In this document: positions 9,759-35,135 of the stretch, in pieces
Layout of the letters: each line of letters starts with the position of its first letter
How positions within the stretch are numbered: the stretch's first letter is position 1
Virus record (IMG/VR): IMGVR_UViG_3300008255_000048
Length of the DNA: 41,255 bases
Strand: one strand, 5' to 3'
From: a virus
Notes under the pieces: model-generated
Databases searched by the model: none
What the model saw: only the letters and a program-made list of their open reading frames with translations
Told to the model about the DNA's origin: nothing
Program-made: the position numbers and the translations under genes

Positions 9759-10120
9759 CAGACCGCGACAGGATTGAGGAGCTGGAAGCCGAAATTGCCA
9801 ACCTGCGGGCCACAATAGCGGAACTGACCGGAGATGGGCGATATGCCTTCCCGGATGAGTGGAAGCTGCGACCTACCGAAGCGCGGATATTATCCGTTAT
9901 CGCGGATAGGGGCATGGCAACGCATGAGGGTCTGTATCTTTACCTTTATTCCGACAGGCTCGATCCGCCTGGGTCAAACAGCGTTGCCGTGATGGTCAGT
10001 AATATTCGCCGGAACGCCCCTGTCAAGATCATCTGCAAGCGGGGGATAGGCTATAGCACCAGCCAAGCGGATCACAGGATGCTGGCGAGATACAAGGTAG
10101 GTTCTGGCAATGGGAGATGA
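9755..10120 (+). CDS. Coiled-coil plus winged-helix (OmpR/PhoB-like C-terminal) DNA-binding protein
   Basis: ATG 9755 overlaps the gcrA-like stop (ATGA). LRPTEARILSVIADRG...VAVMVSNIRRNAPVKIICKRGIGYS resembles a Trans_reg_C effector domain. Confidence 0.55.
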   Translation: MTDRDRIEELEAEIANLRATIAELTGDGRYAFPDEWKLRPTEARILSVIADRGMATHEGLYLYLYSDRLDPPGSNSVAVMVSNIRRNAPVKIICKRGIGYSTSQADHRMLARYKVGSGNGR

Positions 10121-11459
10121 ACCGGACACACGGCCTCATAATATCGAAGCGGAACAGGCGCTGTTGGGCGCGATCCTGTATGATAATTCGCTCATAGAAG
10201 ATATAGGATGGCTGCATCCGGATCACTTTTATGATCCCGTCCATAAGCGAATATATGATTGGTGCTTGTCTGTTATTAACAGGGGCAGGCTGGCGGACGC
10301 TTTAACCCTACGTGAGGCGGCACAGAACGACGCTGGGCTCGCGGATATAGGCGGGGCGTCCTATTTGGCCGTTTTGCTTGAAACGGCGGCTGACGGGGCA
10401 TCTGCAACCGAATACGCCCGGATGATCGAGGACTTTTCAAAGCGCCGGACTCTTGTCGGTCTGGTGCAGGATGCAATGGCCGATGCGGTGACGGCGGAAA
10501 GCGCCGATCAAAGTATTGAGGCGCTTGAAGTCAAGCTGTCGGAATTATCCGGCACAACGCAAGACATAAATTCGATAAGTGTAGGTGATGCACTGCGAAA
10601 GGCGCTGGATCAGCCGGTGGCGGCGTTGCCGACAGGGCTCAAGGACCTTGACGACATGAATGTTATAGCCCCTTCGCTGATTATTGTTGGCGGGCGCAGC
10701 TCTATGGGAAAATCGGCATTTACGCTAGATATGGCCCGCCGCACTGCCGAACGTGGAATGGCTAGCCTCATCCTGTCAAATGAGATGACGGATCGGCAGA
10801 TAGCGGCCCGTCTGGCATCGCCGTATTGCCATGTTCCTTACACCGACATCATTCACGGGAAGGCGTATGGCGAGGATCGTGGAAGGGTTGTCGACACTTT
10901 GGAAAACCTGGACGCTTTACCGCTTACGATCATCTGCGTCCCTGGCGCGGGCGTAGGGGCAATTCAGGCTATTGTCCGCCGTTGGAAGCGGGAGCAGGAA
11001 AAGGCCGGGCGTGAGTTAGGGATTATCGCACTGGATTATATCCAGAACGTCAAGGGCGAAGGCAAGTCTCTTTATGAAAGCATGTCCGGAATCGCCACAG
11101 GATTGCAGACGATGCAATTGAAGCTGGATGTTACGCTGATCGCGGCTTGCCAGATCAATCGCGCGAATGAGGGGCAGAAGGATCGCAGTCCGACGCTGGC
11201 CCAGCTCAGGGATTCCGGCAAGATTGAAGAGGTCGCGGATAGCGTAATCTTGCTGCATCGTGAAGGTTATTATGCCGAACGGGAAAAGCCAAAATCTGAT
11301 CCGTTTGAAGAAAACGAACGCCGGTCGCGGGCAACATCTCGCGAGGTTCAGGTTGACATAGCGAAAAACCGTCACGGTGCTATCGGGAAAATCAGCCTTT
11401 GGGCGGACCTTCGATTGAATTTATTTGACAACTGGGCGCGTGATGGCTATGGTTCCTGA
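10110..11459 (+). CDS. dnaB: DnaB-type replicative DNA helicase
   Basis: 449 aa. The N-terminus has HNIEAEQALLGAILYDN. Walker A is GGRSSMGKSAF. It also carries LRDSGKIEEVADSVILLHRE. Confidence 0.9.
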   Translation: MGDEPDTRPHNIEAEQALLGAILYDNSLIEDIGWLHPDHFYDPVHKRIYDWCLSVINRGRLADALTLREAAQNDAGLADIGGASYLAVLLETAADGASATEYARMIEDFSKRRTLVGLVQDAMADAVTAESADQSIEALEVKLSELSGTTQDINSISVGDALRKALDQPVAALPTGLKDLDDMNVIAPSLIIVGGRSSMGKSAFTLDMARRTAERGMASLILSNEMTDRQIAARLASPYCHVPYTDIIHGKAYGEDRGRVVDTLENLDALPLTIICVPGAGVGAIQAIVRRWKREQEKAGRELGIIALDYIQNVKGEGKSLYESMSGIATGLQTMQLKLDVTLIAACQINRANEGQKDRSPTLAQLRDSGKIEEVADSVILLHREGYYAEREKPKSDPFEENERRSRATSREVQVDIAKNRHGAIGKISLWADLRLNLFDNWARDGYGS

Positions 11460-11585: not shown

Positions 11586-12368
11586 ATGTCAGTTCAAGCT
11601 ATAACATGGGCGATGTCCCAGATAGTTGATTCCTCATCACAGAAATTGGTTTTGATTTGCCTTGCGAATTACGTTGATCAAGATGGCATATGCTGGCCGG
11701 GGCAGAAGCGGTTAGGGCAAGATGCCTCCATGACTGACAGATCAGTCAGAACGGCGCTGAACGGATTAGAGGGTGCTGGCTTCATTATCAGAAAGCGCAG
11801 GAAGCGCGAAGATGGCACCCGGACGAGTGACGAATATCAGCTTATGATCAACCGGAAAAATCTTCCGCTAGATGGGGGGGCTACCGGAAAAATTTGCACA
11901 CCCTACCGGAAAAATCTTCCGGGCAATGAACCTGTAAGAGAACCATCAGTAGAAGGTATGTCGCACAAGCGCGACGTGTCCGCCCGTTTAGTTCGTGATG
12001 AGATATGGGAATTATGGCCTATCAAGGGACGTAGGAGATCAAGTCAGAAGAAAACGCTAACGGCTCTGGCGAGCCTTTTGAAAAGCCATGATCCGCAAGC
12101 GATTGTCAGAGGCGTGAAGTCGTATCTTGCGAGCGATGACGCCAAGGATGGCGAAGGCCAGTATGTTCCGGGTCTGGATAGGTGGCTCCGGGATGAGAAG
12201 TTCGAGGAATGGGCGCGGGCCGGAACGCCCGGCGGCACAAACTGGAGGGGCGAGATTATGCTGTTCATGGAACACGGCTGCTGGAGGCCTGATGGCCCTG
12301 AACCTGGAAAGCCGGGTTGCAAAGCCCCGGCGGATATTTTGGCAGAATGTGGATTTGGCGATGACTGA
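11586..12368 (+). CDS. Replication organiser/initiator-like HTH protein
   Basis: 260 aa. AITWAMSQ...SQKLVLICLANYVDQDGICWPGQKRLGQDASMTDRSVRTALNGLEGAGFI is the winged-helix/HTH_36 pattern common in phage replication proteins. It is adjacent to dnaB. Confidence 0.6.
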   Translation: MSVQAITWAMSQIVDSSSQKLVLICLANYVDQDGICWPGQKRLGQDASMTDRSVRTALNGLEGAGFIIRKRRKREDGTRTSDEYQLMINRKNLPLDGGATGKICTPYRKNLPGNEPVREPSVEGMSHKRDVSARLVRDEIWELWPIKGRRRSSQKKTLTALASLLKSHDPQAIVRGVKSYLASDDAKDGEGQYVPGLDRWLRDEKFEEWARAGTPGGTNWRGEIMLFMEHGCWRPDGPEPGKPGCKAPADILAECGFGDD

Positions 12369-12637: not shown

Positions 12638-14479
12638 ATGAGCGGGTTGCGTTATGGGTCTGTCTGCTCTGGCATTGAAGCTGCAACGGTTGCGTGGTAT
12701 CCGCTTGGATGGCGGCCAGCGTTTTTCAGCGAGATTGAAAAGTTTCCATGCGCTGTGCTGGCGCATCATTACCCGTCTGTCCCGAATTATGGCGACATGA
12801 CCAGATTTCAGGAGTGGCCCGATGTCTCAATTGACCTTCTTGTCGGAGGCACCCCCTGCCAATCGTTTTCCGTCGCCGGGCTGCGAAAGGGACTGGCTGA
12901 CCCGCGCGGAAACCTCGCGCTCACCTATCTTGCCATTGCTGCACGCTATCGCCCCCGCTGGCTGGTTTGGGAGAACGTGCCCGGCGTCCTGTCCAGCCGA
13001 TCAGGACGGGACTTTGGTGCCTTCCTCGGGGGTTTGGGCCAACTCGGGTATGGGTTCGCCTGGAGAGTGCTTGACGCACAATTCGTGCGAACATGCGGCC
13101 AGCCCTTCGCTGTCCCGCAGCGCCGGCGTCGTGTGTTCCTTGTCGGACATCTTGGAGACTGGCGGCGTGCCGCGGCGGTTCTTTTTGACCGCGAAAGCCT
13201 GTCGGGGAATCCTCCGCCGCGCCGCGAAGCGGGGGAAGGAATTGCCCCCACAATTAGCGCGCGCCCTACAGGCGGTCACGGCCTCGGAACCGGCTTCGAC
13301 TGCGACGGGGGATTGATCGCCAGCACAGGCAATGTGGCACATTGCCTGAATGCGGGCGGCATGGGACGGCAGGACTATGAATCTGAAACCATGATCGCCC
13401 ACAGCCTGCGCGGCGAGGGATTCGACGCCAGCGAGGATGGCACGGGCAGGGGCTGGCAGGAAGATCACGCCTATACGCTCGAAGCTCGAAACAAAGTGCA
13501 GGCGGTGGCGTCTGACACAACGCAAATCACATCTCCGGGCAATTATTCGAATCCGCAACCCGGCGACGCCTGTCACCCCTTGGTGAGCGGTGCTCATGCG
13601 CCAGCTATTGCCACGCCGTGGGCCGTCCGCCGCCTGACCCCAACCGAATGCGAGCGCCTGCAAGGATTTTCTGCAATTCATCAACGGGTTAGAATTGTTT
13701 CATGGCCAGCCACCAAATGTCTGCCGAATGCAAATGTGGAAAACCGATGCACTATCGAGCCAAACAATGCCTCGAATGCAGACGCCGCCGCGTGGTGGCA
13801 TCATGCGGACATTGCGGAAGCGCTTTCGAGCATGCGCCATCAAGGCCTAGGCGGGCGTGCAGTCCTGCATGTGCGCATAGCCTTAGATCAAGCGGGTCGT
13901 CTCGGTCTCAGTGTCGCAAGGTATGGCTCGAATGCCAGCATTGCGGCGGTGGAAAGCGTGTCTCTCCCGCCTACGCTGATCGACGATATTGCTCAAGCGA
14001 TTGCGCTTATAAGGCCAATTGCGGAAGCGCGAACATCAACTGGAAGGGTGGCATCACGCCCGACCGGCCCAAAGACATCGCAAGTCCCGAATGGAGGTCT
14101 GCTCGCTCATCTATCTGGGCTCGGGATCAGCGGACATGCCAACGGTGTGGAGATGTGCACCGACACGGAGAAAGTGCTTTCCACGTTCATCACATCAAGC
14201 CATGGGCGCAAGATAAGCGCCTCCGATATGCCATGGACAATCTGGTGCTCCTTTGTGCGGGGTGCCATCGCTGGGTGCATTCCCGGCGGAATACCCAACG
14301 ACAGTTTCTTTGTCGTTGATGTCGAAGCGCTGACCGATTTCACCAATATCCCATGGCGCGGGAAACCCGCAGATCAATGCCCGGATGGGCCGCGATACAA
14401 AGCGCTGGGAAACTCGATGGCCGTCAATGTGATGGAGTGGATCGGCGAAAGAATACAAATGGCGGAGGCACTGACATGA
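12638..14479 (+). CDS. dcm: DNA (cytosine-5)-methyltransferase carrying an insertion of about 222 codons between motifs IX and X
   Basis: Motifs appear in order: CSGIEAA (I), GGTPCQSFS (IV), ENVPG (VI), QRRRRVF (VIII), TPTECERLQGF (IX). About 222 unrelated codons (13670-14335) follow, then DFTNIPWRGKPA..GPRYKALGNSMAVNVMEWIG (X). The frame is open throughout. Confidence 0.85.
   Translation: MSGLRYGSVCSGIEAATVAWYPLGWRPAFFSEIEKFPCAVLAHHYPSVPNYGDMTRFQEWPDVSIDLLVGGTPCQSFSVAGLRKGLADPRGNLALTYLAIAARYRPRWLVWENVPGVLSSRSGRDFGAFLGGLGQLGYGFAWRVLDAQFVRTCGQPFAVPQRRRRVFLVGHLGDWRRAAAVLFDRESLSGNPPPRREAGEGIAPTISARPTGGHGLGTGFDCDGGLIASTGNVAHCLNAGGMGRQDYESETMIAHSLRGEGFDASEDGTGRGWQEDHAYTLEARNKVQAVASDTTQITSPGNYSNPQPGDACHPLVSGAHAPAIATPWAVRRLTPTECERLQGFSAIHQRVRIVSWPATKCLPNANVENRCTIEPNNASNADAAAWWHHADIAEALSSMRHQGLGGRAVLHVRIALDQAGRLGLSVARYGSNASIAAVESVSLPPTLIDDIAQAIALIRPIAEARTSTGRVASRPTGPKTSQVPNGGLLAHLSGLGISGHANGVEMCTDTEKVLSTFITSSHGRKISASDMPWTIWCSFVRGAIAGCIPGGIPNDSFFVVDVEALTDFTNIPWRGKPADQCPDGPRYKALGNSMAVNVMEWIGERIQMAEALT
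13702..14319 (+). CDS. HNH homing-type endonuclease, nested in a different frame inside the dcm gene
   Basis: 205 aa with several CxxC zinc-ribbon pairs, RYCSSDC, NWKGG, and an HNH core (WARDQRTCQRCG...FHVHHIKPW...DNLVLLCAGCHRWVH). Its frame is offset by one nt from dcm. A stop at 13690-13692 precedes its ATG. Confidence 0.85.
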   Translation: MASHQMSAECKCGKPMHYRAKQCLECRRRRVVASCGHCGSAFEHAPSRPRRACSPACAHSLRSSGSSRSQCRKVWLECQHCGGGKRVSPAYADRRYCSSDCAYKANCGSANINWKGGITPDRPKDIASPEWRSARSSIWARDQRTCQRCGDVHRHGESAFHVHHIKPWAQDKRLRYAMDNLVLLCAGCHRWVHSRRNTQRQFLCR

Positions 14480-15018
14480 CCACATATCGCGCCCGTGTGA
14501 ATGAGACGGAATCAGACCCGCGTGATCGCATGGGATCAGACAAGTGGGGGGTATTCGTCCCCGACACACCGATTGACCATGCTTATTGCCGGTTCGTGTC
14601 TCGCGGCTCATGCTGGTTAGGGCAGGATGAAGTGGAAGTGCTGCGCAGATACCGTGCTGGCCGGTTATGGTTTCGGGTTTGGAATATCGCTCAAGGGCTG
14701 TCATATGACGCCACGCTTCGGGAGTCCGTTGATGGATCGGGATATGCGCAGGTCGGCGCGAACGCCCGATTGCAGGCCAGCACTGACCGGATGCGGATAT
14801 TCCGCGATGAGCCACGTATGACAAAGCTGCGGTTCGGTGATCTTGACGCGGTGTGCGGTGTAGGCCGAAGCCCCGGCCAGCATGGCAAGGCTTTCGGGAG
14901 GTCGTCCATCACGGTAAAAGAATCCGTCATTGCCGGGCTGGATGTAATCAACGGCTATTCGCCGTGGCAGCGGCGGCTTGAGAGTGAGCCCGTGCTTGCG
15001 ATCCGGATGGTTGGATGA
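14476..15018 (+). CDS. Hypothetical protein (180 aa)
   Basis: ATG 14476 overlaps the dcm stop (ATGA). The track ORF from 14353 is an upstream extension in the same frame. Confidence 0.55.
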   Translation: MTTYRARVNETESDPRDRMGSDKWGVFVPDTPIDHAYCRFVSRGSCWLGQDEVEVLRRYRAGRLWFRVWNIAQGLSYDATLRESVDGSGYAQVGANARLQASTDRMRIFRDEPRMTKLRFGDLDAVCGVGRSPGQHGKAFGRSSITVKESVIAGLDVINGYSPWQRRLESEPVLAIRMVG

Positions 15019-21819: not shown

Positions 21820-22827
21820 ATGGCTGAATTGAACGCCAAAAATCCCACGCTCCTCGATCTTGCCCGTCTGAAAGACCCGGACGGCACGGTTGCGGACATT
21901 GTTGAAATCATGAACGAGACTAACGAGGTGATGCAAGACATCTCGTTCCGTGAGGGCAATCTCACGACCGGTCATCGTTCCACGATCCGTGCTGGTATTC
22001 CGGCACCGACCTACACAAGGCTCTATGGCGGCGTTCAGCCGACCAAGGGCACGACTGTGCAGGTTGAAGATACCTGTGCTATTCTTGAAGCATATTCGGA
22101 AATCGACAAGCGGCTTGCTGATCTGGAAAACAATCAGGCGGCTTATCGCATGAGCGAGGACCGTGTGCATATCGAGGGTTTCGCACAGGAAGTTGCCAAC
22201 GGCATCTTCTACAATGACGAAGATGTGTCGCCTGAGAAGTTCACTGGCCTTGCTCCGCGCTACAATTCGCTCAGCGCGGACAATGCGGAGAACATCGTTG
22301 TCGGTGGCGGGCTCGGTTCGGATAACGCTTCGATCTGGCTGGTTGTCTGGGGTCCTCAGACCTGCATGGGTATCATCCCTAAAGGTTCTGTTGCCGGTAT
22401 GCAGGTGCGCGATCTTGGCGAAGATACCAAGGTAAACCCTGATGGCTCGATGTATCAGGTTTACCGCACTCACTACCGGTTTGATGTTGGCCTGACGCTG
22501 AAGGACTGGCGCTATGTGGTTCGCATCCCGAACATTGATCGTTCCTCCCTGTCCACTACCTGGACATCAGGTGCGTTCTCGGGTGGTGCCGATCTGTCGG
22601 ACTTGATGCATCAGGCAATCACACAGGTTCCCAACCTGAATGCGGGTCGTGCGACCTTCTACTGTGACCGCTCGATTCTCGGGACGCTGCGCCGTCAGGT
22701 CAGCGCAAAGACCAATGAGTCCACACTGCAAGCCGAGAATGTTGGCGGCACCTTGCAGACCTCGTTCATGGGCATTCCACTGCGCCGCTGTGATGCTCTG
22801 TCTGGCAACGAAGCCGCCGTATCTTAA
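21820..22827 (+). CDS. Major capsid protein (epsilon15/BPP-1-like HK97-fold type)
   Basis: 335 aa. NPTLLDLARLKDPDGTVADIVEIMNETNEVMQD...GLAPRYNSL. Position and size are typical. Confidence 0.8.
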   Translation: MAELNAKNPTLLDLARLKDPDGTVADIVEIMNETNEVMQDISFREGNLTTGHRSTIRAGIPAPTYTRLYGGVQPTKGTTVQVEDTCAILEAYSEIDKRLADLENNQAAYRMSEDRVHIEGFAQEVANGIFYNDEDVSPEKFTGLAPRYNSLSADNAENIVVGGGLGSDNASIWLVVWGPQTCMGIIPKGSVAGMQVRDLGEDTKVNPDGSMYQVYRTHYRFDVGLTLKDWRYVVRIPNIDRSSLSTTWTSGAFSGGADLSDLMHQAITQVPNLNAGRATFYCDRSILGTLRRQVSAKTNESTLQAENVGGTLQTSFMGIPLRRCDALSGNEAAVS

Positions 22828-24366: not shown

Positions 24367-26670
24367 ATGGCTCTGCGATCAGCCCTTCAACAGGCCTCTT
24401 TTACTGGTGGCGAGGTTAGTCCGTCGCTCTATGGCCGTGTTGATCTGTCGCGCTACACGACAAGTTTGCGTACCTGCCTTAACTGGTTTGTGAAGCCGGA
24501 GGGCGGCGTTTCCAAGCGGTCTGGAACGCGCTTTATCTGCGAGGTCAAGAATCATGCTGCCGAAACGCGCATAGTCCCCTTCCAGTTTTCGACAACAGCA
24601 ACCTATGTGCTGGAATTTGGCGATCAGTATATGCGTGTTATCAAGGACGGCGGGCAGGTTCTGGAGTCAGCAAAGAACATAACCGGCATCACGCAAGCAA
24701 ATCCTGCTGTTGTGACTAGCGCCAGTCATGGCTATTCTAATGGAGATCACGTTTTTATCCAAGGCGTATCCGGCATGGCGCAGGTCAATCAGCGCACGTT
24801 TGTTGTGCGGAACAAAACCGCAAACACATATGAGCTTGAAACGGTTGCGGGTGGTGCCGTCGATTCCACAGGATACGATGCCTATACGTCAGGCGGTACG
24901 TGCTCAAAGGTCTATGAGATTGCCACGCCATATAGCGCGGCGGCTGCTGGCGAGATGAAATATGCACAGAGCGCGGATGTTTTGTATATCGCGCACCCCT
25001 CGTATGCGCCGCGCAAGCTATCACGCACAGGTGATGCGGCATGGACGTTAGAGGTTATGGACTTTGGGACAGACCTTGTTCCTCCGTCCGGGTTTACAGG
25101 GTCATGGTCAAGCACGTATCCGGATGGTTCGACCTCTGAAAAATACATCATCACCTCGTTTGATAGCGCAACCGGCGAGGAAAGTATTGCATCTGATCCG
25201 CCGATCATTGTGGCGCGTAACAAGGTTTGGACAGCCGGAGTAACGATTGGCCTTTCATGGTCGGCGGCAATTGGCGCAACCGATTACAACATTTACAAGG
25301 CGCAGTCCGGCGTATTTGGATATGTTGGCACGGCAAGCACAACCAGTTTCAGCGATAACAATATCGTTCCGGACACGACAGACACGGCACCTGAAGCGTT
25401 CAACCCGTTTGCGGATGACAACCACCCTTCAACGGTAACATTTTTCGAGGACCGGCTTTACTGGGCGGCATCGAATACGCTTCCGCAGACTGCATGGGGA
25501 AGCCAGCCCGGCAATTACACCAATCACGACCGATCTAGCCCTCCGAATGATGGCGATGGCGTGGAGTTCACTATCAATGCGCGCCAGGTGAACAAGATAG
25601 AACATATGGTTCCTCTTGATGATCTTATTCTTCTGACGAGCGGCGCGGTCTGGGCGGCGTCCGGACAGGGTGAGAACGAGCCGCTCACGCCAAACTCGAT
25701 CCGTGTGCGGGTGCAGTCCTATTCCGGTGCAGAAAGCGTTGAACCTGTTTTGATCTCAGACACGGTTCTTTATGTTGAGGACAAGGCGCAGAGCGTGCGC
25801 GATCTTTACTATCAGTTTGCATCCGACGCCTACACCGGATCGGACCTCACCATCATGTCGCGCCATTTGTTTACCGGAAAGACAATTGTGGACTGGGCTT
25901 TCTCCAAGGTTCCACATTCTATCGTATGGGCCTGCCGTTCGGACGGCGCACTGCTTGGCCTGACCTATGTGCGTGAGCATGAGGTGTGGGGATGGCATCG
26001 CCATGACACCGCCGCAAGCGGAAAATTTGAGCACGTCGCTGTGGTTTCTGAAGGTGACGAAGATGCGGTATATTTTGTGGTTAAGCGGACTATTGGGGGA
26101 GAAACACACCGGTTTATCGAGCGCCTGCAAAGCCGTGTTTTCTCGGATCAAACCGACGCCTATTTTGTAGACTGCGGCCTGAAGTATGACGGCGCGGAAA
26201 CTTCGTCGCTTACCGGGCTTTGGCATCTTGAAGGAGAAGACGTTGCCATTCTGGCTGATGCCGAAGTGGAGCCCGCCCAGACAGTAACAAACGGAACAGT
26301 CACGCTACAAAACCCTGCGACAAAGGCGAGCGTGGGCTTGCCCTACACTGCTGATGTTGAAACGCTGGACCTGAATGCTCCTATTGAGGGCGGGGCGCTG
26401 GCATCTAAGAATCGCAAGGTGTCAAAGATTCACCTTCGCATTAACGAGGCACGAGGTCTTTTTGCGGCTGAAACGGGCTCAGGCGTTTTGAATGAGCTGA
26501 AACAGCGCACAACCGAGGCTTATGGTGATCCCATTGCGCTTCAATCTGGCATCGTTGAAATCGTAGTCAATTCGACATGGGGCAAGCGGGGCCGTGCCTT
26601 CATCCGTTCAAGTGATCCGCTTCCGGCTGAAATACAGTCTATCATTCCAGAGTTTGCGGTCGGTGGATGA
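24367..26670 (+). CDS. Tail tubular protein B / nozzle (T7 gp12-like)
   Basis: 767 aa. The N-terminus reads FTGGEVSPSLYGRVDLSRYTTSLRTCLNWFVKPEGGVSKRSGTRF. Confidence 0.65.
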   Translation: MALRSALQQASFTGGEVSPSLYGRVDLSRYTTSLRTCLNWFVKPEGGVSKRSGTRFICEVKNHAAETRIVPFQFSTTATYVLEFGDQYMRVIKDGGQVLESAKNITGITQANPAVVTSASHGYSNGDHVFIQGVSGMAQVNQRTFVVRNKTANTYELETVAGGAVDSTGYDAYTSGGTCSKVYEIATPYSAAAAGEMKYAQSADVLYIAHPSYAPRKLSRTGDAAWTLEVMDFGTDLVPPSGFTGSWSSTYPDGSTSEKYIITSFDSATGEESIASDPPIIVARNKVWTAGVTIGLSWSAAIGATDYNIYKAQSGVFGYVGTASTTSFSDNNIVPDTTDTAPEAFNPFADDNHPSTVTFFEDRLYWAASNTLPQTAWGSQPGNYTNHDRSSPPNDGDGVEFTINARQVNKIEHMVPLDDLILLTSGAVWAASGQGENEPLTPNSIRVRVQSYSGAESVEPVLISDTVLYVEDKAQSVRDLYYQFASDAYTGSDLTIMSRHLFTGKTIVDWAFSKVPHSIVWACRSDGALLGLTYVREHEVWGWHRHDTAASGKFEHVAVVSEGDEDAVYFVVKRTIGGETHRFIERLQSRVFSDQTDAYFVDCGLKYDGAETSSLTGLWHLEGEDVAILADAEVEPAQTVTNGTVTLQNPATKASVGLPYTADVETLDLNAPIEGGALASKNRKVSKIHLRINEARGLFAAETGSGVLNELKQRTTEAYGDPIALQSGIVEIVVNSTWGKRGRAFIRSSDPLPAEIQSIIPEFAVGG

Positions 26671-27631: not shown

Positions 27632-29311
27632 ATGCCGCAGGTTCCTCTTTCTACCGTTCAGGTTCAAACGACTCAGGCCAGCCAACAGGTGCAGGCATCA
27701 CCCGATGCGTTCGGTGCCGGGGTTGGGCGTGGCCTGCAATCCGTTGGTCAGGGTCTTGACGCTCTTGCACAGCGCGCCCAACAAATACAGGAAGAAAACG
27801 ACGCAGCGAGTGCTATGGAGGCCTATACGCGCGCTTCTGACGCTGCGCGCGAGTTTCTGCGCGGAGAACAGGGGTTTCTCACCCGAGAGGGACGCGAGGC
27901 TTTTGAAGGATATGACGACGCGCAGGCTAGGTTTGATGAGCTGTCGCAGGAATATCGTCCCGAAAGTCAAGGAGCCCGAGAGGCGTTTGAACAGCTTTGG
28001 CGCAGCCGCCGTGAAGGCGCGCTCAACACTATCGCCACACATGCGGCCAATCAGCGCCGAGCGTATTTTGAGAACTCCCGCACGGCTTTTCAGCAAGAAC
28101 AGCTTAATACGGCTATTGAGAATTATTCCAACCCGGAGATTTTTGACGAGAGCATTGCGCGCGGTGTTGCTGCAATCCGGGCGTCTGGTGCAAACGGAAG
28201 GCGTCCGGCTGATGAAATCAATCTGGAAGTCGCTGAATATCAGTCTCAAGCGGTGCGGACTGGAATAGCCGCAGCACTGGATTCGGGCAATTTTGCACAG
28301 GCCGAGGCGCTGCGTGATCGCCATGGTGATCGCCTGATTGGTGAAGACAGAGCAACGGTTGATGCGCTGATAGAGCGCGGCGCTCTGACTGTGCGCCGTC
28401 AGGAAGCCACTGACGAGATATTCTCCCGCTTTGGAACGGATGAGCGTTCGGCCCGCCGTCATATCCGCGAAAACTATGAGGGCGATCTGGAGGACTCCAT
28501 CATACAGGACTATAACCGCCGTGTGGGTGAGGTCCAGATCAGCCAGACTGAGCGGCGTGAATATGTGATGCAACAGGCGGTTGCCGCTGTCGAGGCTGGA
28601 ATGCCGGTCGATGAGTTGCCGCCGTCTCAATTCCTTGCCCTGAATGAGGGGGAGAGAGAATGGTTGCGCCGTCGCCAATCCGGTCTCCCCATGTCAACGG
28701 ATTTTGAGGCCTATACCAATTATGCGAACATGGATGAGGCCAGCTTGCGCACGGTAGATTTGACTGAGGCGCGCCGCAATCTGGATGACGAAGATTATAA
28801 CCGCGTCGTAGGGTGGGTTCGCCGCGCTCGTGATGGCGAGTTTGATCCGGATGCGCTTGACGGGGTGCGCAGTGAGTTGGCTGTTGTAAATGAAACGCTT
28901 ATCGGTATGGGCATAGATCGCGGTGCGGATGAGTGGAATCGTTTTCATCAAAATGTCGAGCGCAACCGGCGCGCGCTGGCGCGGCGCGAGGGCCGCGAGC
29001 CGAACGCTGATGAGACGCAGGCGATTGTCGATAGTCTTGCCCGTGAAGTTGTGTTTGAGCGCCCCGGCCTGTTCAATGATGTGAGAGGCCGAATTGGAAC
29101 AACCGGGTTCGGTGACGCCATTCCGCCTGAACATCAGGCGGCTGTGCTGGCTGCGTTCCCTGAAACCCGCATTCCTCAATCCGCTGCGGTAGGTCTGTAT
29201 AACAGGGCAATTGAATCCTACCGTGAGCGCGGGGTTCTTGACCCGTCTCCGGACGAAATTCAGGAAGCCGTTGCATGGCTGCGTGAGCAAGGGCGTGAAA
29301 ATGACCGCTGA
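27632..29311 (+). CDS. Internal virion/ejection protein (gp15 position)
   Basis: 559 aa, helical and charged, located between the gp14-position and gp16-position genes. Confidence 0.5.
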   Translation: MPQVPLSTVQVQTTQASQQVQASPDAFGAGVGRGLQSVGQGLDALAQRAQQIQEENDAASAMEAYTRASDAAREFLRGEQGFLTREGREAFEGYDDAQARFDELSQEYRPESQGAREAFEQLWRSRREGALNTIATHAANQRRAYFENSRTAFQQEQLNTAIENYSNPEIFDESIARGVAAIRASGANGRRPADEINLEVAEYQSQAVRTGIAAALDSGNFAQAEALRDRHGDRLIGEDRATVDALIERGALTVRRQEATDEIFSRFGTDERSARRHIRENYEGDLEDSIIQDYNRRVGEVQISQTERREYVMQQAVAAVEAGMPVDELPPSQFLALNEGEREWLRRRQSGLPMSTDFEAYTNYANMDEASLRTVDLTEARRNLDDEDYNRVVGWVRRARDGEFDPDALDGVRSELAVVNETLIGMGIDRGADEWNRFHQNVERNRRALARREGREPNADETQAIVDSLAREVVFERPGLFNDVRGRIGTTGFGDAIPPEHQAAVLAAFPETRIPQSAAVGLYNRAIESYRERGVLDPSPDEIQEAVAWLREQGRENDR

Positions 29312-32300
29312 TCCATTTGAAACGGCTGCCAGCCGCAGAAGTGCCGAGACGTTATCCGATCCTTTTGAGGCTGCACGTCAGCGCCGCGCTCAACGAGCGG
29401 AAGCCACTCATCGCTATGTGCGTGACACTAACCCGGACGAGGCCGCAGAGGCGTTAAGCCTGTCTGATGCGCTTCAAGTCCCGTTTACCTTTGCCATGCG
29501 CAACCGTGCCGCCATGGTTCAGGCGGTAGATGACCGCGACATCCAGACCTATTTGCGCAACTCTCCATTGACATCTGCGTTCATGAGTCAGCCTGAACAG
29601 GCGGCGGTAACGAGCGATTCCGTGCGCGAACTGGCCGAGATAGAACGTCTTATCGCCGAGCGTAATGCGCCCCGGCGCTCAATAGCGCGTCAGGTTGTTG
29701 AGGTTCCTCGCACCGCAGCTGCTGGCGCGCTATCGCTGGGTGGTGGTCTGGCGGGTCTCGCTGATTTATATGAGGCCTCCTATGTCATCCCGGTCAGCCG
29801 GTTCTTGAACGAACGCACGGGCGGCGGGCTGGATGCCTTCAATCAAGTGGGTCCTGATGTGATTAACCGCGTCGCTGAAGCCGTCACACCGACGACATTG
29901 CTCCGCAATGCCGGTGAGGGGTTTGAGAATCTGGCAGATGCTGTTCGGCCAGATGATCCGGGGTTTGTGGATCAGATTGGCGAAGCGTTGGGGCAAATTG
30001 CTGGTGCAGTGGGTTTGTCTCTTGGCACGTCGAATCCGGCTCCTGTCGTGGGCTTGTTTTCAGGTCTTGGGGCTCGCCAGCAATCAGAGCGGATGCGCTC
30101 GCTGGGTATTGACCCAAACGAAAACCCGGATGCGCTGATTCAGGGCGCGACCGTGACAGGCGCAACCGAGGCGCTCCGTCTGGGCAGTATCATGCGTGTG
30201 CTTCCGGCATCTGTGCGTAGCCGTGTGGCTTCGAGCGTCTTTGCCCGTATTGCAGGGCAGGCGGGAGAGGAGGCGGCACAAGAGGCTGTAGAGAATATTG
30301 GGCAAAATCTGATTGCTCAGGGCTATGATGCCGAGGCGCGCCTGTTTGAAGGTGTGGCGCAAGAGGCAACAACGGCTGGAACGGCTTCAGCGATATTTCA
30401 GGGTCTTGTGGAGGTTGCCTTACCAGGGCGAGCGCGTCAGGCGCGGGCTCGGCAAGAGGCCGAAACGATGACGCAACTGCGCGAAGCGGTTGAACAGGTA
30501 CCGGCATTCCAACGCAGCCGCGAGGCTATTGAGAGTTTTCTCAATAACGCAACCGAGGCGCAAACCGTGTTTCTCGACGATGAAGGCGTAACGGCTCTTT
30601 ATCAAACGGAAGGCTTTGATGTGTTGCGCTCTCTTGGTGTAACCGAGGATCAGGTGTCAGCGGCCTTTGCCGGAAATGATGTGGAAATATCTGCCTCCCG
30701 TCTTCTGACCGTGCAGGACCGCGCTCAATATGATAGGCTGGTAGAAATCACCCGTATTGATCCCGATGCGGACACTCTGGCCGAGGCAGCAAACGCGGCA
30801 TTCAACGCGGCGCGCGAGATTGATTATTCCGAGGCACTGGCCCGGCTGCGTGACGAGGAACAATCGCTTGAGGGCTTTGAGATTGTTCAAGAGAATGTGA
30901 CGCAACAGCTTCAGAACGCGGGCCGCTCGCTGGAGGAATCGCAGACTGCTGGCGTGTTGTGGGGTGCTATCTTCCGCACAATTGAGGAACGCTTTGGGGT
31001 CGATTCTGCTCGGACATTTGAACGCCTTGGCTTGAATATCCAGCGGGCTGATGCGCAACAGCGCCGCGCCGATTTGACTGACTTGCTTATTGAAGACTTG
31101 CGCCGCGATGCCATACCGAGTGAGGCTGAGGCTTTTGGTCCGACGCTTCAAGACTATGCCCGCGATGAAGGTTTGATTGCCCGGCGTGGTGAACTTGAAC
31201 TTGACGATGCGGCGCTGGATGCTTTTGGCGAGCGCGCAACAGAGTTGGGTTTCTTTCCGGAGCGTCCGTCTGCAAATGATATCCGGCAGGCGCTTGAGGG
31301 TGGCCCGGTCTATCTGGAAAGCAACCGTAACGAGCCGGTGGCGCAACGTCGTGAGGCACTTTTGAGCCTGCAAGAGCAGGTGCGCGGATCGGGGATTGAT
31401 CTTGCCGATGCAAGTAACGATGCGGTGCGCTCCGCTCTGGGTGATGTGCTGAATCAAGAAGGCAAGGGCGATGCGCGCGCACAAGTCCTCATTCCCGGCG
31501 GTGGTGTTCTTTCTGATCAGGACACCATTGTCAGGCTATCGCAGGCGGCGGACAAAACCTCATTCCTGCATGAAACTGCACACATTTATCTTGAATTGCT
31601 TGCCGAGATGGAAAGCGAGAATGATGCGGTTGCCGCTGATATGGCGACGATCCGTGAATGGCTGGGCTCTGAACCGGGCGCAAAGTTGACCCGCGAACAG
31701 CATGAGACGTTTGCGGAATCTTTTGAGGTCTATCTGATGGAGGGCAAAGCGCCGTCAACAGAGATGAAGGGCGTGTTTCGTAAATTCCGTGCGTGGTTCC
31801 TTCAGGTTTACCGCAATCTGCGCGGTCAGTTGCCTGCGCTGAACGATGAAGCCCGTGAAATCTTTGACCGGATGCTGGCAACCGATGATGAAATCACGGC
31901 TGCGCGCAATGGTTATGCGCTCACTCTGTCCTCCGTTATGGAGGGGCTGATGGACTCTGATGAGGTTGGGAGATACCGCGAGGACGCGCGGCGCGCCGGA
32001 GATGTGGCGTTTGACCGCCTGCTGCGCAAGCACATTGCGCAAATCCAGCGCCGGGAAACGAGACGTTACAAGGACGGGTTGCGGGAGGTCGAGCAACAGG
32101 TTCGCAGCGAAATCATGGCTATGCCGGTGTATCGCGCCTTTGCCGATCTAACGCGCCCTGACGGGCCAAAACTGGACAAGGCAGCCATTATCGAAATGCG
32201 GGGCGCAAGCGCGCCAGCGGCCATTCCACGGTCAAGCAGGGCGGTGTATGCGGCCAAGGGCGGCGTTCATCCGGACGTGGTGGCAAATGATTACGGGTTT

Positions 32301-35135
32301 ACGTCCGGCGATGAAATGCTTGTTGCCCTGATCGGGGCGCGCAAACCAAAGGATGCCATTCAGGCCGAGGTGGACCGCCTGATGCGGGAGCGGTTTGGCG
32401 ACATTCGCACTGATGGCACTGTGGAGCGTGAGGCGCTTCAAGCCGTCCATAATGAGCCGCAGATCAGAGCCATGAGTGCAGAGGCTGATGTGCTGGCTAA
32501 GCGCGCTGGCAGACAGCCAATTCCACTGAATGCAATCAAGGCTTGGGCAGATAACGAAATAAATACGCGTCCGATCCGGGACGTAATTCAACCTGGCCGG
32601 TATGCCATTAAAGCGCGCGACCTTCATAAGAGGGCGATCCGCGCCGCAGCGCGTGAGCAGTGGATGGACGCGATGCGCTACACGCATCAGGCGATGGCGC
32701 AACATGAACTGGCGAGGCGCGCGTTCAAGGCGCGCGAGGAAATCGAGAAGATCAATCGCCGCGTTTCGACTAGCAGGAATCGCAGCGTAAAAACAGCGTC
32801 GAAAACGATGGACCCGCAGTTTCTGCGCGCCGCAAAGAATTTGATCGCGCTCTATGATGGCCGCGCCGAGGACGCTAAGGTCGCGCGTAACGATCTGATC
32901 AAGTGGGCTGATGAGATCAATGCAGGGGATTATCCCGGTGAGATTGGTTTGCCGACATCTCTGCTGGAAAATGACGTGCGCGCAATGCGTGAAATGTCGT
33001 TTGAGCAATTGCGTGATTTTGACCGATCGGTTCGCAATATCGAGTATGTCGGGCGTCGTAACAGTGAGGCTGAACTGGCTGCGTTCAAAGAAGAAAATGC
33101 CCGCTTTGCCGAGGGCATTCTTGAAAACGCACGACGCAAAAAACCACGCGCCCGCGATCCTACCGGTGTGCTCAATGCCGTCCAGCGGTTTGGCGAAACG
33201 GCGGACGCCCAAATCACGCGATGGTCATTTATCCTTGAAGCGCTGGACGGGTTTGATCCTGACGGGCCTATGCAGCGGGAGTTTGATGGTGAACTGCGCG
33301 CCGCAAGTTCTGATGAATTAAACCGAAACGATGCCGACGCGAAGAAATTGCGCGATATTCTCAATGAGTTTGGCATAACGCAGGGCGACATGAACCGCCG
33401 TGTCCATGTACCACAGCTGGACCCGAATAATCCGGTTCGCATGGAGACGCTGATTTCACTCGCTTTGAACATGGGTAATGATGGGAATATCAGCCGTGTG
33501 CTCAATGACCCTACGATTTTGGCTGAGGACCCGGAAGCGATTGTTTCCATGCTGGATCAGCATCTTGAAAAGCGCCATTGGGACGGTGTGCAGGCGGTAT
33601 GGGATTATATTGACACCAAATGGCCCGAGCTGTCAGCGCTTGAGCAGCGGGTCAAGGGCGTTGCTCCTGCCAAGGTGGAGGCGTCTCCCATCACAACCCG
33701 TCACGGCACTTATGCGGGCGGATATTATCCGATTGCCTACGACCGAACGAGCGTTCAAAATCAGGACATTGCCGAGGGCACCGATCAGGAGCGCTATGAT
33801 AGCTGGAAGGATGGCGGCTCTGTCCGGGCCTCAACGCGGCAGGGACATGCCGAAGCCCGTCTGAAAAATGCCGGGAGCCGTCCGCTTGATCTTAGCCTGT
33901 CGGTGGCGCTGCAACATCTTCAGCAGGTCAATAAAGATATTGCCATGCGCGAGACAGTGACGCGGCTTGACCGCCGCCTGCGCGCGCCGGAAGTCAGAGA
34001 GGCCATTTTCGCCACGCAGGGCCGGGAAATTTATCAAGCAATGCAAACCATTCTTCGCCGAACGGTGGCTGGTTTGGAGCGCCCGGCGACTATTCCTGAA
34101 AAGCTGATCCGCCGCGCCCGCGTGAATTGGGCTGTGTCCATTCTCGGCCTGTCGGTGCGAACGGTTTTGCTTCAGCCTACCTCGCTCATTCAGACAGTCG
34201 TTCCGAAATACGGACTGAAAACAGTTCGCCGTGGTTATGCAGAATTCTGGCTCGGCAATGGCGTTACAGGACCTGCTAAGAGCCTGTCATTTATTACTGA
34301 GCGGTCATCGTTCATGCGTGAGCGCGTCACAACGGCAACACGAGAACTATACGACAACATCAAGGCGCAGAAAATTCACGCCCGATGGGGCCGCATTCAG
34401 GCGATGAGTTTGAAGCCGATGGTTATGATGGAGATCATGGCCGTGGGTGGTCCAATCTGGATGGGTGTTTATCGTGCCCAAATTGAGGCTGGCGCAAGCG
34501 AGCGTGATGCTATTTCTGCGGGCGACCGCGCTGTTGCGACGACACAGGGCTCTGGCCTGCCGATGGATCAAAGTGTGCTCCAGGGCGGCAATGAGATTGC
34601 CAGGGCCTTCACGTTTATGTGGGGCTATATGTCGGGCGTTTATGGTCTGACGCGATCAAAGATAGGTGATTTCAAAAGCACACGGGAAGTGTTTCCGCTC
34701 GTTTCGGCAATGGCCCTCATGTATGTCGTTCCGGGCTTTATCGAGGCTCTTCTGGACGCGCCGGATGATGACGATGAGACTTATCTTGACCGTGTTTTGA
34801 AGCGTCAGCTTTCGACGGTGACGGGCGCGGTTCCGGGTCTTTCTCTGGTTTCGGGGGTGTGGGCATATGGATCAGACTCTTTTGCTCTCGACCGCACATT
34901 CAAGGACACAGGCCGTGCGTGGGAGTCCTATCAGACTATTGGTCAGGATTTGTGGGAAGATGGCCATACCGATGGTGAGGCTGTTCGTGCCGCGCTTCTG
35001 CGCACCGGGGACGCGCTGACCACTATCATAGGCATTCCCGGCTGGGCTCAGTTCAAGCGGACATACCGTACGCTTACTGAAGATGATGATCCGACGCTGT
35101 ATGAGGCGCTTGTGAGCGGGCCGGATCGGAAATGA
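29301..35135 (+). CDS. Giant internal virion/ejection protein (1944 aa) with an HExxH zincin-like motif; polyvalent-protein-like
   Basis: ATG 29301 overlaps the upstream gene by 11 nt. HETAH lies at 31569-31583 in the context SFLHETAHIYLELL...HETFAESFEVYLMEGKAPS...FRKFRAWFLQVYR. The C-terminal third has several hydrophobic segments. Confidence 0.7.
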   Translation: MTADPFETAASRRSAETLSDPFEAARQRRAQRAEATHRYVRDTNPDEAAEALSLSDALQVPFTFAMRNRAAMVQAVDDRDIQTYLRNSPLTSAFMSQPEQAAVTSDSVRELAEIERLIAERNAPRRSIARQVVEVPRTAAAGALSLGGGLAGLADLYEASYVIPVSRFLNERTGGGLDAFNQVGPDVINRVAEAVTPTTLLRNAGEGFENLADAVRPDDPGFVDQIGEALGQIAGAVGLSLGTSNPAPVVGLFSGLGARQQSERMRSLGIDPNENPDALIQGATVTGATEALRLGSIMRVLPASVRSRVASSVFARIAGQAGEEAAQEAVENIGQNLIAQGYDAEARLFEGVAQEATTAGTASAIFQGLVEVALPGRARQARARQEAETMTQLREAVEQVPAFQRSREAIESFLNNATEAQTVFLDDEGVTALYQTEGFDVLRSLGVTEDQVSAAFAGNDVEISASRLLTVQDRAQYDRLVEITRIDPDADTLAEAANAAFNAAREIDYSEALARLRDEEQSLEGFEIVQENVTQQLQNAGRSLEESQTAGVLWGAIFRTIEERFGVDSARTFERLGLNIQRADAQQRRADLTDLLIEDLRRDAIPSEAEAFGPTLQDYARDEGLIARRGELELDDAALDAFGERATELGFFPERPSANDIRQALEGGPVYLESNRNEPVAQRREALLSLQEQVRGSGIDLADASNDAVRSALGDVLNQEGKGDARAQVLIPGGGVLSDQDTIVRLSQAADKTSFLHETAHIYLELLAEMESENDAVAADMATIREWLGSEPGAKLTREQHETFAESFEVYLMEGKAPSTEMKGVFRKFRAWFLQVYRNLRGQLPALNDEAREIFDRMLATDDEITAARNGYALTLSSVMEGLMDSDEVGRYREDARRAGDVAFDRLLRKHIAQIQRRETRRYKDGLREVEQQVRSEIMAMPVYRAFADLTRPDGPKLDKAAIIEMRGASAPAAIPRSSRAVYAAKGGVHPDVVANDYGFTSGDEMLVALIGARKPKDAIQAEVDRLMRERFGDIRTDGTVEREALQAVHNEPQIRAMSAEADVLAKRAGRQPIPLNAIKAWADNEINTRPIRDVIQPGRYAIKARDLHKRAIRAAAREQWMDAMRYTHQAMAQHELARRAFKAREEIEKINRRVSTSRNRSVKTASKTMDPQFLRAAKNLIALYDGRAEDAKVARNDLIKWADEINAGDYPGEIGLPTSLLENDVRAMREMSFEQLRDFDRSVRNIEYVGRRNSEAELAAFKEENARFAEGILENARRKKPRARDPTGVLNAVQRFGETADAQITRWSFILEALDGFDPDGPMQREFDGELRAASSDELNRNDADAKKLRDILNEFGITQGDMNRRVHVPQLDPNNPVRMETLISLALNMGNDGNISRVLNDPTILAEDPEAIVSMLDQHLEKRHWDGVQAVWDYIDTKWPELSALEQRVKGVAPAKVEASPITTRHGTYAGGYYPIAYDRTSVQNQDIAEGTDQERYDSWKDGGSVRASTRQGHAEARLKNAGSRPLDLSLSVALQHLQQVNKDIAMRETVTRLDRRLRAPEVREAIFATQGREIYQAMQTILRRTVAGLERPATIPEKLIRRARVNWAVSILGLSVRTVLLQPTSLIQTVVPKYGLKTVRRGYAEFWLGNGVTGPAKSLSFITERSSFMRERVTTATRELYDNIKAQKIHARWGRIQAMSLKPMVMMEIMAVGGPIWMGVYRAQIEAGASERDAISAGDRAVATTQGSGLPMDQSVLQGGNEIARAFTFMWGYMSGVYGLTRSKIGDFKSTREVFPLVSAMALMYVVPGFIEALLDAPDDDDETYLDRVLKRQLSTVTGAVPGLSLVSGVWAYGSDSFALDRTFKDTGRAWESYQTIGQDLWEDGHTDGEAVRAALLRTGDALTTIIGIPGWAQFKRTYRTLTEDDDPTLYEALVSGPDRK

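Follow-up and report, generated by a model that had tools for sequence, protein, structure and literature searches.

The HNH homing endonucleases I-HmuI and I-PfoP3I, the latter from a cyanophage (PMC3428280), are encoded within group I introns, and endonuclease VII-like genes have been found inside actinophage inteins (bioRxiv 10.1101/2025.01.02.630785). In the mycobacteriophage methylase gp65, the insertion named the ShiLan domain carries an out-of-frame HNH gene in frame 3, while the host frame is stop-free (PMC11855218, PMC9957025). It displays no intron or intein signature and has a homing-like distribution (PMC11855218; Arsenault, Gosselin & Gogarten 2025), and its host-frame reading, which AlphaFold predicts with low confidence, was suggested to form a hairpin-like stalk (PMC11855218). 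A hidden out-of-frame HNH-like open reading frame (ORF) was also described in the methylase gene of Pacc40 gp60 (PMC11855218, section 3.6). Here we analyze the IMG/VR virus record IMGVR_UViG_3300008255_000048, a stretch of 41,255 nucleotides (nt) that we refer to as the window, in which an HNH endonuclease gene lies out of frame within a gene for a C5 cytosine methyltransferase (C5 methylase), between its motifs IX and X.

All four traits of out-of-frame HNH elements in methylase genes, namely a conserved insertion site, an open host frame, an out-of-frame HNH gene and the lack of a splicing signature, are found in the window at the level of sequence. By the same kind of evidence the element is not the ShiLan domain proper, since it occupies a host gene of another family and its HNH protein is only 30% identical to that of ShiLan (over 119 amino acids). 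The examples published earlier are near-identical mycobacteriophage copies, so that they offered no test of selection on the read-through frame; the divergence of the C5 family allows a statistical test of stop avoidance, and thus direct evolutionary proof of host-frame openness, and also allows selection on each of the two frames to be mapped along the insert. We consider it quite likely that the locus is a compact mobile HNH cassette of approximately 660 bp, read through and unspliced, in a C5 methylase gene. Literature searches returned no description of an out-of-frame HNH element in C5 methylases.

The C5 methylase gene and its insert

The ORF listing gives positions 12638–14479 (plus strand) as a single open frame of 613 amino acids, residues 7–344 of which match the Pfam family DNA_methylase (PF00145; E 1e-40). 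The C5 motifs I, IV (PCQ), VI (ENV), VIII (QRR), IX and X (GNS) follow each other in order in one polypeptide. Motifs I–IX are encoded by the 5' part of the gene (12638–13669, plus strand), which ends in ...TPTECERLQGF and was delimited by the ORF listing, the PF00145 match and alignment with insert-free homologues; motif X lies after the insert, in the 3' part (14336–14479, plus strand), which reads DFTNIPWRGKPA...GPRYKALGNSMAV and shares the frame of the 5' part, as indicated by the ORF listing and alignment. A split gene, in which the two parts would be separate, was rejected as an explanation, since the methylase ORF is single and continuous.

Between the two parts, at 13670–14335 (plus strand), lie 666 nt that the host frame crosses without a single stop in 222 codons; the peptide read in this frame is exemplified by AVLHVRIALDQAGR. 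In the insert-free homologues of Roseobacter phage CRP-821 and Pseudanabaena phage Pan4, the corresponding region reads ...ECERLQGFPD-[D/N]-[Y/F]-T-x-I-x-Y-R, and GAGTGCGARCGNCTGCAGGGNTTYCCNGAY is an example of motif IX DNA from one of these alleles. The window has 223 codons where the insert-free homologues have 3, which corresponds to a net insertion of 660 nt (220 codons) relative to GFPD|[DNG][FY]T alleles, the PD codons of which are replaced in the window. Both the site and the phase of the inserted element are the same in 55 further loci. An earlier note on the window, made from its sequence alone, had described this stop-free insert and recommended alignment against insert-free homologues. 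The ORFs and Pfam matches bore out the description, and the alignment set the boundaries of the insert and revealed its patchy occurrence among relatives, with only 8 of the 120 best methylase matches carrying it.

Within the insert, 32 nt from its beginning and 16 nt from its end, lies an ORF of 205 amino acids (13702–14319, plus strand). The distance between the two gene starts (13702 − 12638 = 1064 = 2 mod 3) places it in frame +2 relative to the methylase, and a TAG occurs in its own frame 12 nt upstream of its ATG. Its product matches the HNH family PF01844 (E 1e-11) and phrog_1271 of PHROGs, and carries zinc ribbons, an NWKGG motif and an HH...N...CxxCH signature; residues H163, H164, N180, H189 and C146/C149/C185/C188 are invariant across the relatives. 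The AlphaFold model of this frame has a mean predicted local distance difference test (pLDDT) score of 88, and its best Protein Data Bank match is 5H0M, both by hmmsearch (E 2.6e-11) and by Foldseek (rank 1, template modelling score of 0.66 on the target). The product, which the earlier note had already identified as an out-of-frame HNH protein, has what defines an HNH endonuclease of the PF01844, His-Me finger type: a predicted beta-beta-alpha-metal core, putative catalytic His/Asn/His residues and CxxC...CxxC zinc ligands. A frameshift fusion of methylase and HNH was tried as an explanation and rejected: HNH-frame stops upstream of the ATG are common among the elements, and their positions are not conserved.

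Selection on the two reading frames

In this phase, a host-frame stop requires an HNH codon NTA followed by A or G, or NTG followed by A. The hand counts of the earlier note (10 NTG codons and 1 NTA codon, no stop-creating base after any of them, and CTG for 1 of 8 Leu codons) were exact, but its estimate of approximately 5% for the chance of an open frame proved too low. When synonymous codons were permuted within the HNH ORF, the probability of no host-frame stop in the window alone was 0.29; when codons were drawn anew from the window's own usage it was 0.18, with 1.57 stops expected. The frequency of open frames in such shuffles (29%, or 18% by the redraw) is of the order that the note itself had said would weaken an argument from this single sequence. 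The probability is high because the Cys/Arg/Ser-rich HNH protein provides few NTA|R or NTG|A contexts. A mononucleotide shuffle, which gave P 5e-5, was discarded as the wrong null because it ignores the coding of HNH. The same kind of shuffling indicated that an element of approximately 200 codons inserted in the opposite phase would bring about 10–11 host-frame stops, versus approximately 1.5 in the phase observed.

The comparative test is of a different order. A protein search with the 613-residue product yielded 7 other long methylases (578–705 amino acids) that align across the insert, and the DNA of each contains an HNH ORF that is 49–60% identical to that of the window and in the same phase. 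A sample collected in this way is biased towards open frames, and DNA collections were searched with the HNH protein alignment alone, which is blind to the host frame. These searches provided 45 loci (15 viral, 3 genome and 27 metagenome), to which the protein search added 3, giving 48 HNH-ascertained loci; 56 loci were examined in all, the window and 55 relatives. No host-frame stop was present in any of the 48 HNH-ascertained loci (48/48), nor in any of the 56, and the insertion site was the same throughout, at the conserved motif IX position pointed out in the earlier note. The third frame contained 2–28 stops per locus, with 20–28 in elements of 32–39% G+C content (GC). Wherever the contig permits, the open frame extends between an upstream ...RRLTPxECERLQGFP and a downstream ...GPRYKALGNSxAV, and it also crosses the insert in the 3 loci where gene callers had annotated the HNH separately.

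Under the permutation null, 1.45 host-frame stops were expected per element, and the product of the probabilities of finding none over 42 non-redundant elements was 1e-36; a conservative version, in which only the largest P from each of 10 clusters (60% identity) was retained, gave a combined value of 1e-9.8. That all relatives lack the stops which this null predicts shows that selection holds the host frame open; the significance comes from the relatives and not from the window. The reading proposed in the earlier note, of one read-through methylase with a loop encoded in an alternative frame that selection keeps open, gains its support from these loci. In addition, a phmmer search of a 1.8-billion-protein library with the host-frame loop identified approximately 28 further representative clusters that carry the read-through peptide.

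A few of the loci are irregular. In L060 (1480–3200) and L061 (723–2900), motif IX, the insert and motif X lie in one frame and the methylase's N-terminal half in another, owing to a faulty assembly or to a pseudogene; here, the HNH is annotated by gene callers as a gene of its own. L024 (2202–2934 of IMGVR_UViG_3300026315_000001) has, of the element, its 3' half alone (HNH residues 113–204), together with the motif X exon, fused in the host frame to an unrelated N-terminal sequence and still stop-free, and looks like a rearranged remnant. In L022 (1176–3738 of IMGVR_UViG_3300000228_000002), which carries a low-GC element (39%), the ORF continues past motif X into a second C5-methylase domain (FSGIGG...PCQ...ENV); the gene encodes two fused methylases, the first of which carries the insert.

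What the two frames encode was compared along the body of the insert in pairs with HNH identity below 55%. Nucleotide identity was 0.51, 0.57 and 0.38 at HNH codon positions 1, 2 and 3, the same profile that ordinary methylase exons show in their own frame (0.53, 0.60 and 0.37), and identity of synonymous codons was 0.383 versus 0.372 expected from codon usage. Host-frame amino-acid identity was 0.237, close to the value of 0.221 for the non-coding third frame. The host-frame reading of the insert was modelled by AlphaFold with pLDDT values of 27–50, compared with 88 for the HNH frame, and the corresponding peptide had no family match in Pfam or PHROG. Alignments and models alike indicate that the body of the loop is a passenger for which stop avoidance is the sole requirement, with no selection at the amino-acid level.

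The two ends of the loop behave differently. At the 5' end, among 34 elements, host codons 3, 7, 9 and 11 after GF are of the hydrophobic type nTn, and T occupies position 2 of host codon 9 in all 34. The host-frame pattern at the 3' end is [FY]-x-[LVI]-x-[LVI]; here, T is present in 34/34 elements at a host codon position 2 that is an HNH wobble position, and nearly so in the adjacent column, whereas both positions flanking the invariant T vary freely and the C-terminal tail of HNH is not conserved. AlphaFold places beta-strands at residues 347–355 (HQRVRIVSW; 13676–13702, plus strand, 5' of the HNH ATG), with pLDDT of about 66–77, and at residues 558–566 (FFVVDVEAL; 14309–14335, plus strand, overlapping the last HNH codons and the 16-nt tail), with pLDDT of about 62–79. 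These are the only moderately confident parts of the loop, and they coincide with the conserved nTn end segments. Codon pattern and model together indicate that both ends are under host-frame selection for amphipathic beta-strands, and it seems rather likely that the two predicted strands pair as a stalk, or beta-clasp, beside motifs IX and X. The dual coding suggested by the earlier note consequently applies to the two ends, while most of the insert is stop-free and nothing more; its term 'overprinted' is inappropriate, since HNH is an imported mobile gene and what is kept free of stops is the insert's host frame.

Downstream of the insert, the motif X exon of distant insert-bearing alleles displays identities of 0.57, 0.61 and 0.35 at host codon positions 1, 2 and 3, the periodicity expected of purifying selection. 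From this pattern, and from selection on the loop ends, it is fairly probable that methylase activity is kept despite the insert. The best-surviving alternative, which we nonetheless regard as unlikely, is that the insert inactivates the methylase and that the frame stays open for other reasons, such as avoiding Rho-dependent polarity or mRNA decay that would affect downstream genes or HNH itself. Orphan phage methylases are often dispensable, most of the loop shows no amino-acid-level selection, and L060 and L061 are frameshifted upstream yet open across the insert, all of which would suit a dead enzyme. The next ORF (14353–15018 / 14476–15015) overlaps the methylase stop, with ATGA at 14476–14479, which suggests that the downstream gene is translationally coupled to the methylase and bears on polarity; its 180-residue product has no Pfam match. 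A dead methylase does not account, however, for purifying-selection periodicity and invariant GPRYKALGNS-type residues in the motif X exon of highly diverged alleles, nor for selection on the end strands (nTn at the HNH wobble position), which makes no sense unless the folding of the read-through product is important. AlphaFold, in addition, retains motifs IX and X within the confident core of the methylase.

Spread, expression and retention of the insert

The element always follows ...ECERLQGFP and occupies the same site in methylases that share 32–80% identity. Insert-free homologues are up to ~80% identical to the methylase of the window, and insert-bearing ones 49–59% over the whole protein. 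Pairwise identities of HNH and methylase are weakly correlated (r = 0.45), and the pair L032/L034 is clearly discordant, with identities of 0.61 for HNH and 0.38 for the methylase. Carriers are phages and metagenome-assembled genomes labelled Saccharibacteria, Clostridia and Bacteroidetes, and the lineage of the C5-methylase element extends down to approximately 45% protein identity and over GC contents of 32–61%. Among 50,697 cultured-phage records, tblastn with the HNH protein gave distant matches alone, none above 35% identity (haloviruses, Brucella phages), and no isolated phage with the element; mycobacteriophages were absent from the 40 best matches and from the 10 organism groups named in the same search. 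The occurrence at one site, the patchiness and the discordant divergence are signatures of a site-specific mobile element, and the distribution fits site-specific homing into the conserved DNA of motif IX.

The methylase clade also houses another insertion. P0089, a close C5-methylase homologue of 590 amino acids, contains a different HNH domain, of the HNH_3 type (PF13392, residues 290–334), in frame; it is inserted at approximately residues 200–355, between motif VIII and the target-recognition region, with 'VAP' on both flanks. At least two HNH insertions, unrelated to each other and at separate sites, are thus present in this clade.

The HNH could also be a domesticated or partner nuclease, with a restriction-like or packaging role, nested in the methylase gene to couple expression rather than to home; we hold this to be a little less likely still than a dead methylase. 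Its closest solved relative is the HNH enzyme of phage GVE2, McrA-like enzymes match as well, and phage HNH enzymes have many roles. This explanation is difficult to reconcile with an identical, precise site in methylases from different phyla that are only 32–40% identical, with the patchy presence among close relatives, with the discordant divergence of element and host, and with the fact that the insert splits its own presumptive target.

Splicing was considered because HNH genes in phage genes are classically intron-borne and because introns, too, occupy conserved insertion sites. Rfam gave no intron or ribozyme match between 13300 and 14700 at E values up to 10, nor in 20 related loci at gathering thresholds, and no RNA pairing was detected that would join the 5' end of the insert to its 3' end (mean z 0.02). 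The earlier note had argued that flanks of ~32 nt and ~16 nt leave no room for a ribozyme and had named covariance models as a check; the flanks are as it described, and the models were negative. A group I intron was rejected, there being no ribozyme core (P3–P9), at most ~50 nt of non-ORF sequence, no excess synonymous constraint and no end pairing. A compact or unfamiliar self-splicing intron, or host-assisted splicing, that would remove the insert from the mRNA and yield a mature methylase without the loop is more elusive, in that Rfam detects described families only. We judge it very improbable: only ~30 nt and 0–25 nt lie outside the HNH ORF, the ordinary wobble variation of the HNH frame (0.383 versus 0.372) leaves no room for a conserved ribozyme core, the insert ends do not pair, and a spliced intron would need neither a stop-free host frame nor host-frame strand codons, both of which are universally conserved.

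No intein features were found either, in agreement with the earlier note: there is no Pfam HINT match, no junction nucleophile and no conserved terminal Asn, the junctions in relatives being GFP-E/Q... and ...G/D-[FWY]-T. Post-translational excision of the loop by a new intein-like or proteolysis-and-ligation mechanism is hardly credible, for although the in-frame, stop-free, conserved-site behaviour mimics that of inteins and the strand-like termini faintly resemble intein terminal blocks, the insert has no conserved first Cys/Ser/Thr (it starts P-E/Q/D in relatives and S-A in the window), no terminal His-Asn (G, D, S or P precedes [FWY]T) and no HINT domain, and the central part of its peptide, for which disorder is predicted, changes in the manner of a non-coding frame.

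How the endonuclease might be produced is suggested by the dimensions of the element. The leader measures 27–32 nt and the tail 0–25 nt, and the ATG stands exactly 32 nt after the GF codon in 30/34 elements. Numbering the A of the ATG as +1, T-12 is present in 28/34 elements, A-11 in 31/34, A-9 in 23/34 and T-7 in 34/34; at exactly −12 to −7, 28/34 share four or more of the six bases of TATAAT, as compared to 1% per position elsewhere. In the window, the hexamer that this 34-element comparison reveals at −12 to −7 is TAGAAT (13690–13695, plus strand). T-12 and A-9 are host wobble positions, and the rare ATA and AGR codons used there argue for a nucleotide-level constraint. The geometry of the hexamer is that of the −10 element of a leaderless mRNA starting at the AUG, with the −35 position, 17 bp upstream, falling on the TTYCCN of the exon. 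It is about as likely as not that this −10-like element drives a leaderless HNH mRNA; the same base bias would also be expected of an initiation region that is AU-rich and unstructured.

Taken together, these observations can be assembled into a mechanism. The cassette interrupts the motif IX DNA (...ECERLQGFP|D...) of a phage gene for a C5 methyltransferase and is shifted by one nucleotide against the host frame. With no known RNA or protein splicing to remove it, ribosomes on the methylase mRNA would read straight through, and the product would be a 613-residue enzyme with a loop of ~220 residues between motifs IX and X. Selection keeps the frame stop-free and shapes the first ~10 and last ~8 residues of the loop into two amphipathic beta-strands, which may pair as a stalk that keeps the loop ends together and off the catalytic fold, while the ~200 residues between them are an unselected passenger, probably disordered. 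HNH would be made separately from its fixed ATG 32 nt into the insert, with a leaderless transcript or internal initiation in the AU-rich region as the two routes, and would presumably cut insert-free motif IX DNA, after which repair would copy the element in.

Several points weigh against this picture of a read-through mobile cassette. The 613-residue protein, its activity and the absence of splicing rest on computation; the open frame in the window alone fits chance (P = 0.18–0.29); and Rfam cannot rule out an unfamiliar ribozyme or host-dependent splicing. The upstream frameshifts in the methylase genes of L060 and L061 mean that some copies may sit in pseudogenes, and in the target-recognition region the confidence of the methylase model is low; nor does its output reveal whether the end strands pair. 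With regard to the promoter, the hydrophobic codon pattern is a confounder of the −10-like motif, given that T-7 is position 2 of an nTn codon. A strict scan for the two sigma-70 hexamers and for terminators between 13400 and 14600 returned nothing, the −35 candidate TTTTCT matching at 3/6 positions. Upstream of the ShiLan GTG, no good equivalent of the −10 element was found; TATGAA is a poor match and lends no support to the promoter idea.

Genome context and relation to known systems

The 41,255-bp window looks like a podovirus-type phage genome. A DnaB-like helicase (10110–11459) and an HTH_36 protein (11586–12368) are encoded upstream of the methylase, and a T7-type portal (PF12236; 19153–20802), the major capsid protein GP7 (21820–22827), a nozzle-like protein (24367–26670) and two very large ORFs (29211–35135 and 35170–39273) downstream. 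Gene callers fold the insert into one long "methylase", and the endonuclease is never reported. If the methylase is active, C5 methyltransferases would have, after motif IX, a natural site at which large insertions are tolerated.

Of the described systems, the ShiLan domain is the one that the window resembles in most respects. In both, HNH fills nearly the whole insert and lies in host frame +2, the host frame is stop-free and its reading is modelled with low confidence, no intron or intein signature is apparent and the distribution is patchy and homing-like; the phase in ShiLan (NC_041988), which we retrieved for comparison, is the same as in the window (8516 − 6786 = 1730 = 2 mod 3). The two HNH proteins share phrog_1271 and a module of zinc ribbon and NW[KR]GG, but the catalytic core of ShiLan is unlike the PF01844 CxxC...CxxCH type of the window. 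The hosts also differ, ShiLan gp65 being an N6/N4 methylase that matches PF01555, in contrast to the C5 enzyme (PF00145) of the window, and so do the insertion sites and the starts, which are a GTG 18 nt into the insert in ShiLan and an ATG 32 nt in here. The ShiLan domain is known from Mycobacterium phages alone, in near-identical copies, while the C5 family occurs in phages and metagenome-assembled genomes of several phyla, down to ~45% identity. Pacc40 gp60 likewise has an out-of-frame endonuclease-like ORF in a methylase, with an uninterpretable host-frame reading, but it is described as a helicase-methylase fusion with a 160-residue AP2/PacI-like ORF.

More distant systems share single traits with the window. 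The HNH genes of group I introns lie, as here, at highly conserved coding sites and are presumed to home, but the window has no ribozyme and has a conserved open host frame, which introns do not need. Inteins resemble it in that insert and host protein are translated in one frame, and non-canonical inteins in that the endonuclease is out of frame, in 'frame 3'; the window differs in having no HINT domain and no junction nucleophiles, and in a loop that is presumably kept. The mobE gene in nrdA of Aeromonas phage Aeh1 is reportedly a free-standing homing endonuclease gene that splits its host gene. Insertions of the mobE type leave the host gene as two ORFs, and the two products come together again; the endonuclease gene lies directly in the coding sequence, without intron or intein, as in the window, where the host ORF is in contrast single and continuous. 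The HNH enzyme of phage GVE2 (5H0M) provides the closest solved beta-beta-alpha-metal core, but it is a stand-alone nicking enzyme of 130 residues, terminase-associated, without the two N-terminal zinc ribbons and not nested.

The C5 family, ShiLan and the endonuclease VII-like genes of actinophage inteins have a common phase, with the endonuclease in host frame +2, and the low stop cost of this phase may explain its recurrent choice. We tentatively put forward, as an idea that could well prove too broad, that such elements represent a third general lifestyle of homing endonuclease genes besides introns and inteins, one that would combine insertion in the cheap phase, dual-coding clasp ends that would let the host enzyme put up with a junk loop of ~220 residues, and possibly a −10 element of its own, with the C5 family as an ancient, cross-phylum lineage distantly related to ShiLan. 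The C5 family offers concrete features that are open to testing, in its two terminal strands, its fixed ATG and its −10-like hexamer. The arrangement itself has a precedent, published in 2025; the C5-methylase element is a new family of this kind, distantly related to the one described, wider spread and more diverged.

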